From the NCBI GenBank assembly GCA_965215515.1, contig OZ244057.1:1600001-1664000 (forward strand): a DNA stretch of 64,000 nucleotides, in the 5' to 3' direction. Origin of the DNA: Oligoflexales bacterium (GTDB taxonomy: Bacteria > Bdellovibrionota_B > Oligoflexia > Oligoflexales > JAPPIL01). Position 1 is the first letter of the stretch; the number at the start of each line of letters is the position of its first letter. Positions 32,840 to 42,810 of the stretch are shown piece by piece. The position numbers and the translations under genes are program-made. The notes beneath the pieces are model-generated. The model was not told the origin of the DNA, did not search any database, and was given only the letters and a program-made list of their open reading frames with translations.

Positions 32840-33150
32840 ACCACAGCTTGCTTAGGTTTCCGTCCCGTTATCTTTCGTCCCTTGTTGAGGTACTCCTTGA
32901 TGGATTTGTCGATATCCTCAATCGGTGCGGTATTGATGAGGCTTCGCAGGTAGCTGCGCTTATCGAAGAACATTTCGGCAATACTGTCATACTCCCGCTC
33001 CGCATACTTCTGAAAAAAGATTGCAATGATCTGGTTCACCACCTTCGAGCTGTCCGTTCGGCAAGACCCTTCCCGCAGCCTTGTCACCAAATCGGTGACA
33101 AGGCTTGCTTGCTTCTGTTCCAATACTATCCTACGCACTGACTTACTCAT
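32836..33150 (-). CDS. Hypothetical ICE protein
   Basis: Start/stop overlaps with both neighbours. Confidence 0.6.
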   Translation of the reverse strand: MSKSVRRIVLEQKQASLVTDLVTRLREGSCRTDSSKVVNQIIAIFFQKYAEREYDSIAEMFFDKRSYLRSLINTAPIEDIDKSIKEYLNKGRKITGRKPKQAVV

Positions 33151-33587
33151 CTTGAGCTTGGTAACCGAGATGCATTGCCTCTGATCGTCCATACACAATG
33201 CTGCTGGACGAGCCTGTTGCCTCTGACCTCCCAGTCGAAGCACTCCTTATCTACGTCAGGAGCTGACAACCGAAAGTCCTGCACACCCTGCTTGCTGATC
33301 GGTGCAGAGACCGAGAATTTATCGAGATTGAGTAGCGTCTGCCGTCTTGTCTTGGTATCCCTCTTCTGCAACGCCTTATGAATCAGATAGCTGCTAGCTG
33401 CGCCGATTGCAGCACCGAATAGTGCTCCCTTCAGCGCACCTTTGCCTCCCGTTGCAGCCATGTTCGCTACTGCTCCTGTGCCCACGCCTACACCTACGCC
33501 TGTAAGCATAGACCTGTGCATCGTGGCACAGCCAGCTGCTAAAGTAGCACTCATTACCAGTAACATCACCATCACCTTTTGCTTCAT
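33147..33587 (-). CDS. Glycine-zipper lipoprotein (VirB7/TraV-like role possible)
   Basis: LAAGC lipobox, GxxxG repeats, AGGAGG RBS. Confidence 0.65.
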   Translation of the reverse strand: MKQKVMVMLLVMSATLAAGCATMHRSMLTGVGVGVGTGAVANMAATGGKGALKGALFGAAIGAASSYLIHKALQKRDTKTRRQTLLNLDKFSVSAPISKQGVQDFRLSAPDVDKECFDWEVRGNRLVQQHCVWTIRGNASRLPSSR

Positions 33588-33759
33588 GAAACCTCCTAAA
33601 AAATGGTTATTTAAGACACATGTCAAAATAGCTGATAATCCCTCTGATTGCTTTTCCGCTTGCAGCAGAATAAAATCGCAAAATCAACTAGTTAGCTCGC
33701 TGCCCCTGAGTTTGCTGAACCGATGTCGGGTGCGGGAGTTGAAGCCAGCCTGCATGTCC

Positions 33760-39764: not shown

Positions 39765-42213
39765 GGTTACCTCCAATTAAAAATTTTTGATCGAGCTTTT
39801 TACCCTCCCCAAAAGCTAATAGTTCAAGAACCTCTAGTTTACTCAAAGCTGGATGTTTCTTTTCTGTATTAGCAATCAGTGTCTTGTCGTTAGCATCTGA
39901 AGTAGCAATCCAGTGACTGATTGGTTCAGGGATAAGCCGCAAGATGGCATCGCGCTCATCTTGCAGATAGTAGAACTCGCTGTATTCGCCCTTCTTGATG
40001 GTTAAACTCTTGATGCGCTCAACTTGCGTAGCATTGAAATCAAAAGTTTTTTGAAAATCGTCCCAGTCGATTTTGCTTTGGCGCAGAATGATAACACTGG
40101 TGGTGTTGGTCATTAGTGCATCTCGCAAAGCCTTATCTGCCATAAAATCTTTGTAGTTTTGGCTCAAACACCAGATGCCGCTGCGAAACTTGCGCCACGT
40201 GCGATAACAGGTAATCACTACTTGTCGTGCTAGTTCAGATTGGAATAAGCGTTCGGCTTCGTCGATAATCAGCAGATACTCACGTTCAATGTCTGAGGAA
40301 GCGACATCTTGAATGTGAGAGGTCAGAAGCAACAGCAACACGTCTTTCAGGTCAGAATAGTTGCTTAACTGCTGCACCTCGATAGACACCAAATCTTTGC
40401 TCAGTTCAACGTTAGTTTGCCCGTCAAGCATCTGCCCATAGGCTGATTGTCCCGTCCAGCTGTAAAGCACATCGCCAAACTTGCGCATCTGCTTATCTGT
40501 GTGCCTGTCGAGCAATGCCTTCAAGTCTGATAGCGTAGGTATCTTGCCTTTTGCGTCAGCATAGACCTTGTGTAGCTGTTCTTCGAGCAATGCCTTCTCA
40601 CGCTTGCCAAGTGCCTGCTTGTCATCGTCTTTGAGGATCATCTCCAGCACTGCTAGCAACGTGCGAATGCGATCTGGACTTGGTGTTGTCTCACCTTCCT
40701 TTAGATCGAACATGTTGAGGCACAGACCAGAGCCGAGCTTGAGGTCTAAAAACTCGCCGTCGAGCACTTCAATTAAACGTTTAGATGATGCGCCATTGTC
40801 GATCCAAACAATTCTAGGACGATTGCCGTTGGTTACCTTGCCATAAAACATCGCCATCAATTGAACGACGGTATAGCTCTTACCGCTGCCTGAACTGCCG
40901 AAGACTATGCCGTTCCATGCAGGCAGGTGTTCTGCATAGGGATCAAGACTGAACAATTGTCCGTCTCTCGTCGGCAGCAAGCACACAGGCGTAGGGTTGC
41001 CTGTCCAGTTAGCAAACACAGGCATTAGGTGTGCAGCGTTGCTAGATTTCATCTTCTTGTGTCGCAAGCCCTGACAGGTGCTAGGCATGGACTTCAAGAA
41101 GGCTTCCTTGCCTGCCAGTGTCTCTTGCAATCCTTCAGCTTGATTGAGCAGACGAAAAGTTTTCAGTATCTCATCGGTCTTGTCATCTAGTTCGCTACTG
41201 GTTTTGCCCCAGATGATGATATTGAAATCGGCCGACACGAGTTTTTCTGAACCTTCTAGCAAATTTCCTAGTAAACCTTCGATCTGTCCGAGCTTGTTTT
41301 CTGAATCCAGATCACTAACGTTCTTGCTGCCAGAAGCCATCGAGTGGGCAATGCGCCTTTTCATTTCCAGTTTTGATTTCTCCTTTGCTTGGTCGAGCAG
41401 GTGAATTGACTGACTCAACCAAAAGTGAAACGGCACGGCTGCGAACATGTTAGCCATACCCGCGAATGTCTGTCCTTCGGGCAACGTGGCAAGGCTGATA
41501 GTGCGAAACTTGTAATTCCCCAGCGTGATGGCCTGTTTGTCCCAGATGAAATCGGTCAAGGTTAACTGCTCGCTAATAGATGGATCAAGGCAACTGTGCT
41601 GCTCACGATAACGAGCTGTGCCAATCCTTTCAGTTCGATCTAGGTTTAGAAACGCAAACAGTAGTCCAAACCATTCTTCCCGCTGCAACGCTTGTGGCGC
41701 AAGCCGAACAGCTTCAATTGCTGAAGCAATACCTTTCACTTCCCGCAAGAACTTCGCTTTGCGACTGTCGAACTCCGCTTTGCTAATTTGCTGAAACGCA
41801 CGCTCGCTGTTAAACAAACCCTGTCGTTGCATGGCAAAGGCTTTGCTGCGCACGAAAAAGAAAATGTTTGGCACAAAGTAGCTCCCCTTGCTCTGATTGC
41901 GTCGATAGAGCTCAACACGCGCATCAGCTAACCGTTTGTAATTGCCGCCAATGCTACTAGAGAGCCGTTGATGCTGTTTTATCAACTGACTAACATCTGG
42001 TGTCAGCTGATAGAACAATTGCAAACGCATTCCCTCATCAGCAGAGATGAGCAGGTTTTCTAAACCTCTACTCATCTGATTGATCGCTTGCTCTGTGGCA
42101 CAAGTCATGTCAAAGCCTCCAAGCTTGAACCCTGCACCGAGCGAGCCATCTTTAAAAACCATTAGGTCATCATCGAAGTGCCAAAGCTCAAGCTCATTAG
42201 CTAGGCTACTCAT
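39754..42213 (-). CDS. VirB4/TraC conjugative ATPase
   Basis: Walker A GSSGSGKS, IDNGAS, Walker B IIDEA, RKF...SQ. Confidence 0.9.
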   Translation of the reverse strand: MSSLANELELWHFDDDLMVFKDGSLGAGFKLGGFDMTCATEQAINQMSRGLENLLISADEGMRLQLFYQLTPDVSQLIKQHQRLSSSIGGNYKRLADARVELYRRNQSKGSYFVPNIFFFVRSKAFAMQRQGLFNSERAFQQISKAEFDSRKAKFLREVKGIASAIEAVRLAPQALQREEWFGLLFAFLNLDRTERIGTARYREQHSCLDPSISEQLTLTDFIWDKQAITLGNYKFRTISLATLPEGQTFAGMANMFAAVPFHFWLSQSIHLLDQAKEKSKLEMKRRIAHSMASGSKNVSDLDSENKLGQIEGLLGNLLEGSEKLVSADFNIIIWGKTSSELDDKTDEILKTFRLLNQAEGLQETLAGKEAFLKSMPSTCQGLRHKKMKSSNAAHLMPVFANWTGNPTPVCLLPTRDGQLFSLDPYAEHLPAWNGIVFGSSGSGKSYTVVQLMAMFYGKVTNGNRPRIVWIDNGASSKRLIEVLDGEFLDLKLGSGLCLNMFDLKEGETTPSPDRIRTLLAVLEMILKDDDKQALGKREKALLEEQLHKVYADAKGKIPTLSDLKALLDRHTDKQMRKFGDVLYSWTGQSAYGQMLDGQTNVELSKDLVSIEVQQLSNYSDLKDVLLLLLTSHIQDVASSDIEREYLLIIDEAERLFQSELARQVVITCYRTWRKFRSGIWCLSQNYKDFMADKALRDALMTNTTSVIILRQSKIDWDDFQKTFDFNATQVERIKSLTIKKGEYSEFYYLQDERDAILRLIPEPISHWIATSDANDKTLIANTEKKHPALSKLEVLELLAFGEGKKLDQKFLIGGNHAN

Positions 42214-42523
42214 AAATCTTCCTCCGCATCTGTGCTGCTTGTGTTGGTTCTTGACCAGCCGAGAAAAAACCCGGCGATACATAGAAACGCAGCAAATGAG
42301 GCAAGAACTTCTCTGGCTTGCCGCGTTTGCCAAAGTAAAACACCGCAAGGATCAGTGCAGGGCAGCCAATCACCAACGGCAGCTCTAACACCGTGTCCCC
42401 GAAGAACAGGTTCATAATTGCGGCGAAGATCAAAGCTATCAGCAGATCGAGGGCTTCAATGCCCCCGACCTTAAACTTCGCATCTAAATTCCGCTGCACC
42501 TCTGAAGTGTAAACTTCCATCAC
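42206..42523 (-). CDS. VirB3/TraL-like membrane protein
   Basis: Two TM helices, KRGKPE.FL.H, directly upstream of VirB4. Confidence 0.7.
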   Translation of the reverse strand: MMEVYTSEVQRNLDAKFKVGGIEALDLLIALIFAAIMNLFFGDTVLELPLVIGCPALILAVFYFGKRGKPEKFLPHLLRFYVSPGFFSAGQEPTQAAQMRRKIYE

Positions 42524-42810
42524 CCTACCGCCGCAGATTGAAACCAGCGAATTATTAAGGGAGCGAGAAAGCCAACCACACTAGCAATGATCACCAGCAC
42601 CATGCGTCGCTTCGCCCCTTCATCGCCGCTCATGGTGAGCATAGCGGCATAGAGCAAGCCAAGTATGGCCACAGCAGGCAAGACCACCGACATCAAATTG
42701 TCGGTGAACGAGCGAATTCTGCCCTCAAAACCACTTCCACCCCAGAACTGGGCGAGAGCTGTGTTAGAAATCCATGCGAGACAAACTACCCAGAGTTTTC
42801 TTGAAATCAT
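42520..42810 (-). CDS. VirB2/TrbC-like conjugative pilin
   Basis: Signal peptide (ALA|Q) plus two hydrophobic helices. Confidence 0.75.
   Translation of the reverse strand: MISRKLWVVCLAWISNTALAQFWGGSGFEGRIRSFTDNLMSVVLPAVAILGLLYAAMLTMSGDEGAKRRMVLVIIASVVGFLAPLIIRWFQSAAVG

Follow-up and report, generated by a model that had tools for sequence, protein, structure and literature searches.

A tightly packed operon on the minus strand of the 64,000-nt stretch of DNA analysed here (referred to below as the window), which comes from an uncultured member of the Oligoflexales, is probably the transfer module of a roughly 25.3-kb integrative conjugative element (ICE). As read from its genes, this module would encode a two-membrane type IV secretion machine, in which a TcpA-like ATPase and a MOBC-like protein replace VirD4 and an HUH relaxase.

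Organization of the transfer operon

The operon occupies positions 33147-43169 and includes the genes for a pilin, VirB3/4/5/6/8/9/10-like proteins, an FtsK/TcpA-type ATPase, a Replic_Relax protein and a lipoprotein (Table 1). All 11 genes of the operon B2-B3-B4-B5-B6-B8-B9-B10-FtsK-Replic_Relax-lipoprotein that had been drawn in the first-pass annotation were recovered on this strand at the positions it gave. Most of the neighbouring genes overlap by 4-38 nt or are separated by a gap of zero. Given an overlap of 4 nt between the VirB10-like and TcpA-like genes and of 38 nt between the TcpA-like and Replic_Relax genes, translation of the last two is predicted to be coupled to that of the VirB operon at its end.

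Table 1. Predicted features of the element, numbered as in the window
Feature	Position	Strand	Evidence
Integrase of the large serine recombinase type; 602 aa when integrated	30742..32550	-	Resolvase 56.4 bits, Recombinase 55.5 bits
tRNA-Pro (UGG), integration target, left element edge	30761..30836	+	ARAGORN
Left direct repeat, 103 bp, near-perfect	30831..30933		blastn; starts with last 6 nt of tRNA
Pair of small conserved ORFs (98 and 135 aa)	32543..33243	-	phmmer: present in other copies and related genomes
Glycine-zipper lipoprotein	33147..33626	-	Lipobox LAAGC; Gly-zipper_YMGG E 2.4e-4; conserved in subfamilies 1 and 2
Replic_Relax/MOBC-like protein, putative relaxase	33760..34557	-	PF13814 37.6 bits (cut-off 25.3)
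TcpA-like FtsK-family ATPase, putative coupling protein	34520..35902	-	PF01580 84.7 bits; three N-terminal TM
VirB10/TrbI-like, bitopic	35899..36837	-	TrbI 44.6 bits (cut-off 35); one TM at 20-38
VirB9-like, secreted	36834..37568	-	CagX E 2e-4, TIGR02781 E 4e-7, each below its cut-off; residues 21-115; signal peptide
VirB8/TraE-like, bitopic	37565..38209	-	One TM; ESM Atlas look-alikes in TraE, VirB8 and DotI clusters at 0.94
VirB6/TrbL-like polytopic membrane protein	38184..39071	-	At least 5 TM; TrbL_5 and TrbL_3 cluster look-alikes at 0.90-0.92
VirB5/TrbJ-like, secreted	39072..39776	-	Signal peptide; TIGR02780 TrbJ E 0.0016; between VirB4 and VirB6
VirB4/TraC-like ATPase	39754..42348	-	TraC_F_IV 51.8 bits; P-loop_TraG 69.2 bits
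VirB3-like small protein, TM hairpin	42206..42523	-	Two adjacent TM; directly before VirB4; conserved
VirB2/TrbC-type pilin	42520..42810	-	T4SS_pilin 27 bits, above cut-off; TrbC 24.7 bits; signal peptide and 2 TM
Two conserved ORFs, operon head, 120 and 133 aa	42807..43624	-	Kept in copies and relatives
Two sigma-70 region-4 proteins, 93 and 156 aa	43582..44453	-	Sigma70_r4, r4_2; conserved upstream of operon
XRE-type HTH protein, divergent	44672..45211	+	HTH_3 39.8 bits; same place in copies
Cargo: AbiEi/AbiEii pair, methylase-Mrr fusion, radical-SAM gene, trypsin-like peptidase, other ORFs	45409..55543		Pfam
Right-end ORF	55652..56242	-	In frame with recombinase through repeat (frame arithmetic); Recombinase-domain match E 1.4e-8
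Right direct repeat; junction with second, decayed tandem element	56143..56245		

The VirB4-like ATPase was matched best by the model TIGR02746 (278 bits, below the cut-off of 567), and in a tblastn search of plasmids the F-type TraC proteins came best after Myxococcus. In a tree with thin sampling and poorly resolved deep nodes, it lay outside the MPF_T sample, a pair of near-identical TrbE sequences, and outside the three sequences sampled from MPF_F. The VirB3-, VirB5-, VirB6-, VirB8- and VirB9-like proteins are tentative identifications, drawn from weak or indirect likeness. A relative of the VirB3-like protein gave a weak match to DUF3487; PF03524 is recorded in 23 of 100 homologues of the VirB9-like protein, for which a profile search of PDB sequences returned no solved relative. 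The lipoprotein is possibly a VirB7 analogue or an exclusion protein. Neither the 120- and 133-aa ORFs at the operon head nor the 98- and 135-aa ORFs near the recombinase gene matched any family.

Among the ORFs of at least 70 aa between 30.7 and 64 kb, zero matches were found to the families of VirD4, VirB11, lytic transglycosylases and HUH relaxases. The first-pass annotation had likewise noted the lack of VirD4, VirB11, VirB1 and an HUH relaxase. For VirD4 this is true of the window element but not of the chromosomal neighbourhood: VirD4-like and VirB11-like genes lie 4-12 kb past the window end, in the adjoining tandem element. The VirD4-like gene there is the sole PF10412 match of the genome (C1:1668482-1669414), and in this particular genome its product could function in trans. 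Among the 20 related loci examined, a T2SSE-like ORF was found in none of subfamily 1 or 2, all five matches being in subfamily 3. Profile searches of the window operon for the F-specific TraL, TraK, TraV, TraW, TraU, TraN, TraF, TraH and TraG gave no match, while F-specific genes occur in related loci of subfamily 3.

The ATPase resembles TcpA of pCW3

Three hydrophobic segments (residues 14-32, 40-58 and 67-85) were detected near the N terminus of the ATPase by a simple hydropathy scan. Its best match in the PDB was TcpA of pCW3 (E 1.8e-24, 89.7 bits), aligned in one stretch over residues 92-419, followed by FtsK (7.5e-18, 67.9 bits), whose alignment was split into two stretches; chains of TrwB or VirD4 were absent at E up to 1. 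The best plasmid match was likewise of the pCW3 type from C. perfringens, with 98% of the length covered at 24.7% identity. PF02534, PF10412 and PF12696 gave no match at E up to 0.01. In phylogenetic analysis the ATPase was placed outside the VirD4-like outgroup and outside the clade of true FtsK (100/100 support), and the clustering with VirD4 by which the FtsK-type assignment might have failed was found neither in its domains, nor in its PDB relatives, nor in its tree. The deep nodes of this 29-row tree are poorly resolved, with C. perfringens TcpA on a long branch, and a specific sister relation to the Firmicutes TcpA proteins is neither supported nor contradicted by it. Judged by these comparisons, the ATPase is nearer to TcpA than to chromosomal FtsK, and is a putative coupling protein for transfer.

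The Replic_Relax protein is MOBC-like

The Replic_Relax protein is predicted to consist of an N-terminal winged helix and a C-terminal PD-(D/E)XK nuclease domain, the AF2 models having pLDDT values of 91.4 and, for the C-terminal domain, 93.7. The winged helix matched known structures with Z up to 10.7. For the nuclease domain the top VIA rows were restriction-type nucleases with middling Z values of 6-8.7, including LlaBIII (8.7) and the nickase N.BspD6I (7.7), and a Foldseek search by itself returned no hit for this domain at E up to 0.001. The invariant residues are H116, D117, E139, D163, E180 and K186; among these D163, E180 and K186 are unchanged across 20 sequences with identity down to 18%. 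PF13814 is recorded for most of 92 homologues. This family is read as MOBC in CONJscan, according to the accessible text of PMC5357655, and together with the nuclease fold it agrees with the MOB_C-like relaxase proposed in the first-pass annotation. The NCBIfam model MobC_subf, on the other hand, scored 25.7 bits, far below its cut-off of 200, and no relative was detected by tblastn among 72,556 plasmids.

Family searches of the element yielded no further relaxase candidate. No transfer origin was recognised in the element, where scans for inverted repeats and for promoters and terminators performed no better than chance.

Ends of the element

The operon had been read as an ICE module, and this reading is supported, but the element exceeds the span first assigned to it. 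By sequence, the operon lies within an ICE of about 25.3 kb (approximately 30837-56142) that carries a large serine recombinase and sits at the 3' end of tRNA-Pro; it has an integrase, ends that are defined at a tRNA gene, and a complete transfer module. The GC content of the element is below that of its flanks. The recombinase ORF overlaps tRNA-Pro with its 3' end, in antisense orientation, and all 13 recombinase gene copies and relatives checked (the window copy and 12 others) abut tRNA or tmRNA genes. The recombinase also matched the CcrB and XisF models below their cut-offs. The direct repeat is 67 bp long at 100% identity by blastn, and extends to about 103 bp with one mismatch. Remnants of a second recombinase gene were found at 56111-56334. 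Right ends homologous to that of the window element adjoin other recombinase copies, and in the excised circle the right-end ORF would replace the tRNA-antisense tail of the recombinase. The cargo region lies outside the core common to the copies.

Copies in the genome and linkage in related genomes

The genome contains four diverged full or decayed copies of the element, plus fragments, and three of these four copies are decayed. The window element itself might be an inactive relic, no longer moving although its family is real, as the TcpA, VirB4 or recombinase genes are split in two other full copies, three more pieces are fragments, and the second element has decayed alongside. This appears unlikely for a copy in which all 12 module genes are whole and under purifying selection and the terminal direct repeats are identical at 102 of 103 positions. 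The dN/dS values, obtained by comparison with a paralogue from the same genome and a relative from another genome, are 0.04-0.21 for the module genes altogether, 0.13-0.15 for the TcpA-like gene, 0.15-0.18 for Replic_Relax and 0.11-0.12 for the recombinase.

A search for synteny, as suggested in the first-pass annotation, revealed a conserved family of such modules in Bdellovibrionota, with the TcpA-like gene in 24 of 131 genomes. The surroundings of TcpA-like genes were examined by profile HMMs at 20 loci from 14 genomes. Replic_Relax adjoins the TcpA-like gene at every one of these loci, and VirB4 is nearby in 17; two of the three loci missing VirB4 are on contigs too short to contain it. 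A TrwB-like ORF was found at none of the 20. The TcpA and Replic_Relax pair is joined to two Gram-negative backbones, one VirB-like as in the window and the other F-like (TraL/E/K/B/V/C/H/G). The ATPase and VirB4 trees disagree, and the pair has therefore apparently moved between backbones.

The same pair could instead function in the replication, resolution or partition of the element once it is excised, leaving a secretion machine that has no dedicated coupling protein or receives one in trans. The Pfam name of the family, 'replication-relaxation', the segregation of DNA by FtsK relatives, the occurrence of the pair on Bacillus and Priestia plasmids that are typed non-mobilizable or have no secretion system nearby, and the VirD4-like gene of the neighbouring element are in line with this explanation. 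It is nevertheless very unlikely in view of the translational coupling of the pair to the VirB operon, the VirB4 cluster preceding it in most of the loci, the likeness of the N-terminal membrane anchors of the ATPase to those of TcpA and coupling proteins, the absence of any PF10412 match from 17 of the 24 genomes that carry the TcpA-like gene, and the lack of another relaxase candidate in the element. Bdellovibrionota are predators and some VirB-type systems deliver proteins, yet a non-conjugative system for protein secretion or contact killing that merely rides on the island is scarcely credible, with a predicted DNA-binding nuclease and DNA pump encoded within the operon, no effector or immunity gene recognised in Pfam searches, and a module that is always accompanied by a recombinase located at tRNA or tmRNA genes and exists in multiple, diverged copies in the manner of self-spreading elements.

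Proposed mode of transfer

Under the preferred reading as a conjugative transfer module, the VirB2-type pilin and the VirB5-like protein would form a pilus, the VirB3-, VirB4-, VirB6- and VirB8-like proteins an inner-membrane complex, and the VirB9- and VirB10-like proteins a core spanning the envelope. The XRE-type HTH protein is likely a repressor and the two sigma-70 region-4 proteins are likely activators of the transfer operon; upon relief of XRE repression, the two sigma-like factors would turn the operon on, and the element would then be excised by the recombinase. The MOBC-like protein would bind and cut at a putative transfer origin. A hexamer of the TcpA-like ATPase, presumably docked to the channel, would pump the DNA into the VirB4/VirB6/VirB8 channel, from which it would leave through VirB9/VirB10.

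Comparison with known systems

The view of the FtsK-like (TcpA) coupling protein as a Firmicutes trait agrees with the literature consulted, which confines TcpA to a subset of the MPF_FA systems of that phylum (PMC3548315; PMC12857230). The window protein shares with TcpA of pCW3, and with the MPF_FA systems of the Tn916/ICEBs1 type, the FtsK_SpoIIIE motor and the N-terminal membrane anchors, and as in pCW3 its gene lies within a VirB4-containing transfer operon without VirD4. It differs from pCW3 TcpA in being only about 25% identical and in its two-membrane host; the machine has VirB9 and VirB10 in place of the MPF_FA set, and the relaxase partner is MOBC-like rather than MOBM or MOBT. FtsK-family ATPases also act as transfer motors on pELF-type linear plasmids of Enterococcus faecium, where, in the accessible part of PMC13492992, the FtsK-type TraD is described as essential for transfer. 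Unlike the window ATPase, pELF TraD is devoid of membrane helices and clusters in the tree with true FtsK, and the pELF host is monoderm, with a system that lacks VirB9, VirB10 and a nickase.

With the MOBC relaxases TraX of pAD1 and MobC of CloDF13, the Replic_Relax protein shares PF13814, the PD-(D/E)XK fold with conserved acidic residues and a lysine, and an N-terminal DNA-binding domain, but it is very distant from them, as the NCBIfam MobC score indicates. As far as the accessible text of PMC5357655 describes them, MOBC elements pair with VirD4, in contrast to the window element, and TcpA was never found together with MOBC in streptococcal IMEs. The order of ATPase followed by Replic_Relax is the same on the Bacillus and Priestia plasmids (48 bits in L148, 50.7 in L156 and a weak 18 in L153). 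Their hosts are monoderm, however, and no cluster of VirB4, VirB9 and VirB10 was seen within the stretches of 3.7-5.8 kb examined; since the pair on Bacillus plasmids is without a nearby secretion system, it need not always serve transfer.

With minimal VirB/Trb-type (MPF_T) systems such as those of pKM101, R388 and the Ti plasmid, the window operon has in common the order B2-B3-B4-B5-B6-B8-B9-B10 and the predicted topologies. It differs from them in that VirB1, VirB11 and VirD4 are absent from the ORFs of 30.7-56.2 kb, and in a VirB4 that HMM and tblastn searches place nearer to F-type TraC. A VirB-type machine with a TcpA-type motor and a MOBC-like protein was found described nowhere in the literature searched, and current conjugation classifications do not list such a pairing. 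The window system would bring together a channel of Gram-negative style and a DNA pump and DNA-cutting enzyme that are otherwise known from Gram-positive systems.

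Gene organization of the transfer operon

A run of minus-strand genes extends from 43169 to 33147 of the window and, since neighbouring genes abut or overlap by 4-38 nt in the ORF listing, was taken as a single operon. Clear matches were obtained for five of these genes by Pfam and NCBIfam searches, and the remaining assignments are weaker but consistent (see table). The gene order proposed in the first-pass annotation, VirB2 to VirB10 followed by an FtsK-type ATPase, a Replic_Relax protein and a lipoprotein, is borne out by family or topology support for each gene. Among all ORFs of at least 70 aa between 30.7 and 64 kb, no match to the families of VirD4, VirB11, lytic transglycosylase or HUH relaxase was found in Pfam and NCBIfam. 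As to the VirB9-like protein, PF03524 is recorded in 23 of 100 homologues and PF13629 in 10 of 100, and a profile of 22 VirB9-like sequences gave nothing meaningful against PDB sequences. All 12 module genes showed dN/dS of 0.04-0.21 in comparison of the window with its own paralogue L139 and with L037, the copy in another genome, synonymous sites being near saturation in this comparison.

The VirB9-like protein occurs in two forms. The long form of 244 aa is found in the window, in L140 (another copy in the same genome) and in the fetched locus L040. The short form has about 128 aa, the C-terminal half being missing (window 36834-37217 compared with L138, L139 and L037-L039); it is found in L138, L139, both copies of the same-genus genome G048, and genome G047, and VirB10 follows it directly. 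Downstream of the lipoprotein gene, positions 33077-33105 form a perfect inverted repeat of 12 bp around a 5-nt loop, which may act as a terminator or as the binding site of a protein. Scans of the element for oriT, promoters and terminators gave nothing above chance.

Features of the element E1, its neighbour E2 and further copies in the host genome (positions in the window unless preceded by C1, the whole contig)
Feature	Position	Strand	Remarks
Large serine recombinase gene	30742-32550	opposite to tRNA-Pro	Abuts and overlaps the tRNA
Direct repeat, near-perfect, 103 bp	30831-30933 and 56143-56245		Left copy opens with the final 6 nt of the tRNA
Pilin	operon	-	T4SS_pilin, 27 bits
VirB3-like	operon	-	TM hairpin immediately ahead of VirB4
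VirB4	operon	-	TraC_F_IV, 51.8 bits; P-loop_TraG, 69.2 bits; TIGR02746, 278 bits, below cut-off
VirB5-like	operon	-	Signal peptide; TrbJ, E 0.0016
VirB6-like	operon	-	At least 5 TM; TrbL-family look-alikes at 0.90
VirB8-like	operon	-	One TM; TraE, VirB8, DotI cluster look-alikes at 0.94
VirB9-like	operon	-	CagX, E 2e-4; TIGR02781, E 4e-7
VirB10	operon	-	TrbI, 44.6 bits
ATPase	operon	-	FtsK_SpoIIIE, 84.7 bits
Replic_Relax protein	operon	-	37.6 bits
Lipoprotein	operon	-	Lipobox
T2SSE ATPase	E2		316.7 bits
TraF-, TraE-, TraK-, TrbI-like genes	E2		F-like transfer cluster
VirB4-like, 926 aa	E2		Very divergent, faint VirB4 features; groups with subfamily 3 VirB4
XRE gene	E2		DNA 74% identical to the XRE gene of E1
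Window copy	host genome		Whole
L139	host genome		Nearly whole
L138	host genome		Replic_Relax and lipoprotein genes lost; TcpA and recombinase split
L140	host genome		TcpA and recombinase split
Positions of the three full-length copies outside the window	C1:3093-15672; 125667-138333; 607360-620328		Genome search
Further fragments, at least 3	C1 near 152.9-155.1 kb, 583-587 kb, 1755-1758 kb, 2169.8 kb		Genome search

Boundaries of the element and its tandem neighbour

The host genome is a single contig of 2.18 Mb, on which the window occupies C1:1600001-1664000, and relatives of the window proteins carry the names Oligoflexales, Bdellovibrionales and Bacteriovoracales. Host genes (rpoA, the glycine cleavage system and yebC) stop at tRNA-Pro (30761-30836), and the GC content falls from 0.53-0.55 in the host part to 0.39-0.48 across most of the remaining window. 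The serine recombinase ORF crosses the entire tRNA-Pro gene in antisense, and in twelve further copies or relatives the recombinase gene likewise ends on a tRNA-Val, -Ala, -Arg or -Pro gene or on the tmRNA gene. To the right of the direct repeat, remnants of a second recombinase gene were identified at 56111-56334. This arrangement is read as a tandem array of the integrative element E1 (about 30837-56142, 25.3 kb), which carries the operon, and a decayed element E2. The crossover region is located within the recombinase gene, and by frame arithmetic the right-end ORF at 55652-56242 shares the recombinase reading frame through the direct repeat; in the excised circle the recombinase would thus acquire a different and longer C-terminus, predicted from the reading frames to be about 160 residues.

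A displaced copy of the tRNA 3'-half that could serve as attR was not found, the repeat reaching just 6 nt into the end of the tRNA. Two genomes of the same genus offered no empty site for comparison, because synteny differs and tRNA-Pro is located elsewhere in them. In one same-genus genome (G048:C1:1238637-1238894), a 39-nt copy of the tRNA-Pro 3' end lies about 150 bp beyond tRNA-Pro and resembles an att scar left by a different element. Within the cargo, a stretch with a radical-SAM gene (49614-51399) recurs at no fewer than five further genome sites, with identities of 82-94%, independent of the transfer module. Each tandem element carries its own AbiEi/AbiEii toxin-antitoxin pair, the two pairs being different (45409-46867 and 60462-62158).

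E2 continues past the window to about C1:1,684,900, where bioF and bioA follow. The families PF10412 and PF02534, the TrwB/VirD4-type coupling proteins, matched exactly once in the genome, at C1:1668254-1670017, 4 kb beyond the window end. This TrwB/VirD4-like gene of 587 aa is part of E2, an element with an F-like cluster of its own. Thus, the absence of VirD4 noted in the first-pass annotation holds for E1 and for the other three copies that the genome carries, though not for the neighbourhood. No relaxase was recognised in E2. In the stretches covered (window 56143-64000 and, on the contig, G000:C1:1660001-1700000), E2 also includes a recombinase remnant, ParA, a DnaC/IstB-like ATPase and the AbiE pair, and a type ISP restriction system follows its transfer cluster.

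A total of four full-length copies of the element family, 70-87% diverged, are present in the 2.18-Mb genome, most of them with split or lost genes. This pattern points to repeated invasion of the genome by the family and subsequent decay.

Putative coupling ATPase of the TcpA-like kind

In a phmmer search against PDB sequences, the ATPase matched the pCW3 'DNA translocase coupling protein' at the top (6o1z and relatives, E 1.8e-24) in one stretch, residues 92-419, followed by FtsK (E 7.5e-18), and no TrwB or VirD4 chain was listed at E up to 1. TcpA of pCW3 is described as the solved FtsK-like coupling protein in PMC12857230. Among 72,556 plasmids, the best match came from a pCW3-type plasmid of C. 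perfringens, with 98% of the length covered at 24.7% identity; there the gene adjoins tcpM, tcpD and tcpE. The ATPase has three N-terminal hydrophobic segments.

In a tree of 29 rows (IQ-TREE with bootstraps), the 15 proteins from Bdellovibrionota group in a single clade (92/88), outside the true-FtsK clade (100/100), which includes pELF TraD and a Micromonospora protein, and far from the TrwB-like protein of the same genome; branching relative to C. perfringens TcpA and Bacillus plasmid proteins is without resolution. The ATPase therefore does not cluster with VirD4, and the original assignment to the FtsK type is retained. For a predicted complex of the cytoplasmic part of the TcpA-like protein with the Replic_Relax protein, scores of 0.10, 0.31 and 0.01 were obtained against a mark of 0.32, which speaks neither for nor against binding.

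Probable nuclease fold of the Replic_Relax protein

Across 20 aligned Replic_Relax sequences, with identities as low as 18%, the residues K38, S111, H116, D117, E139, D163, E180 and K186 are conserved. The full-length AlphaFold2 model (pLDDT 91.4) has a MarR-like winged helix in its N-terminal part (Z 10.7), and gave FokI in the first row of a Foldseek search (E 2.4e-4). Because the winged helix filled the fold-search list of the full-length model, the C-terminal domain, residues 108-265, was folded alone (pLDDT 93.7). The top rows of its search against 48,161 chains are almost all PD-(D/E)XK nucleases, with middling Z values: the LlaBIII nuclease domain (8.7), the R.BspD6I small subunit (8.0), AF1548 (7.9), the nickase N.BspD6I (7.7) and the FokI cleavage domain (6.9), with BstEII, SdaI and BsaWI also among them. 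Foldseek by itself gave no match for these residues at E up to 0.001. The mutual agreement of the fold matches and the positions of D163, E180 and K186 at strands 2 and 3 of the model persuade us that the C-terminal domain adopts a PD-(D/E)XK nuclease fold.

In the passages available, MOBC relaxases are the PD-(D/E)XK relaxases (PMC12857230) and PF13814 is the MOBC of CONJscan (PMC5357655). The protein matches PF13814 and, with the modelled fold, supports the earlier proposal of a MOB_C-like relaxase, as what appears from its sequence to be a distant member: the NCBIfam MobC model scored 25.7 against a cut-off of 200, and tblastn found no relative on plasmids. By hhalign, the Replic_Relax alignment gave no significant match to a Bacillus plasmid protein (E 0.068), although PF13814 is matched by both.

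Distribution and exchange of the coupling cassette

The TcpA-like protein was detected (E up to 1e-30) in 24 of 131 genomes of the phylum, or 17 of 55 genera, and PF10412 in 42 of 131, with 13 first-look candidates scored per genome and many genomes incomplete. PF10412 is absent from 17 of the 24 TcpA-like genomes, including G048 (single contig, two complete module copies) and G086 (8 contigs, 97% complete), and two more have weak matches in VirB4-sized frames only. For the ATPase scan of the genome collection, a 15-row alignment was too diverse and a 7-row alignment was used, giving 13 Bdellovibrionota loci and, beyond these, mostly chromosomal FtsK of Campylobacterota.

A total of 20 loci around TcpA-like genes, from 14 genomes, were analysed by phmmer and then by profile HMMs; some locus rows served to build the HMMs, and those newly detected in L050, L051, L055 and L056 did not. 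Replic_Relax adjoins TcpA in all 20 loci (in one case truncated at the end of a contig), VirB4 is located upstream in 17, two of the misses being contigs too short to contain it, and none has a TrwB-like ORF. The module thus recurs in synteny within the Bdellovibrionota. At L043 (G045:C6:42000-61900), the TcpA-like gene is paired with Replic_Relax, and no VirB4 could be detected over the 14 kb upstream; the locus is possibly a mobilizable derivative that relies on a borrowed machine.

The loci fall into three subfamilies. Subfamily 1 is the window type; subfamily 2 has the same gene order and VirB4 of 340-390 bits, with TcpA just 25-28% identical; and subfamily 3 has an F-like machine (TraF, TraL, TraE, TraK, TraB, TraV, TraC, TraH and TraG_N) with TcpA and Replic_Relax at the end, and includes all five loci with a T2SSE ATPase. 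The ATPase tree places subfamilies 1 and 3 as sisters (100/99), whereas VirB4 bit scores from subfamily 1 are far nearer to subfamily 2 (338-390) than to subfamily 3 (40-72). The VirB4 tree (24 rows, quick search, SH-aLRT only; MPF sampling F with 3 sequences, T with 2 and FA with 1) separates the three subfamilies as clades with deep nodes open, none inside the sampled MPF_F or MPF_T. From this disagreement between ATPase and VirB4, we infer that the TcpA and Replic_Relax pair has moved between machine backbones. The F-like backbone is found with both coupling types: subfamily 3 has the TcpA-like one and E2 the VirD4-like one.

On the Myxococcus plasmid with the closest plasmid VirB4, neither TcpA nor Replic_Relax is annotated nearby. 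On Bacillus and Priestia plasmids (L148, L153 and L156), an FtsK_SpoIIIE gene is directly followed by Replic_Relax, with no secretion cluster in the fetched stretches, which suggests an old two-gene cassette. No description of this plasmid pair was found in the literature searched.

Comparison with known conjugation systems

E1 is best read, with good confidence, as an ICE able to transfer itself, with a TcpA-like pump and a MOBC-like nuclease in place of VirD4 and an HUH relaxase. That a Gram-negative T4SS channel is fed by the FtsK-like pump after a restriction-type nuclease cut, with no covalently attached HUH relaxase pilot, and that the DNA might even pass double-stranded, is a speculative and rather unlikely extension. 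Double-stranded passage was raised for pCW3 by structural work on TcpA, as cited in part of PMC12857230; if true here, it would be a conjugation mode not known in two-membrane bacteria. The family offers a natural system for studying how an FtsK-type motor docks on a VirB4/VirB10 machine and which form of DNA is moved. Automatic detection that depends on VirD4 or a classical relaxase would fail to call these elements conjugative.

No description of a module of this type in Bdellovibrio or Bdellovibrionota was found in searches of mainly open literature, and one may exist beyond it; PMC3539863, in the part available, speaks only of ICE-like transposases, and the other papers listed, to judge by title and abstract, do not concern such a module. 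In the sections available of Coluzzi et al. (PMC5357655), TcpA is never found together with MOBC, and the MOBC IMEs carry VirD4 and a serine integrase. A combination of TcpA with MOBC or with a Gram-negative machine is likewise absent from the accessible parts of PMC3548315, PMC12857230 and PMC5357655, and to this extent the module matches no described MPF/MOB combination, as had been suspected. As far as the available passages state, TcpA homologues occur in Firmicutes only, tied to MPF_FA and MOBT (Guglielmini et al., PMC3548315), and VirD4 covers all Gram-negative systems, TcpA occurring only in part of the MPF_FA systems (nomenclature review of December 2025, PMC12857230). The Bdellovibrionota element family, on two machine backbones, breaks both of these rules, VirD4 for Gram-negative systems and TcpA for one Gram-positive lineage, and shows the coupling and DNA-processing unit to be a swappable cassette.
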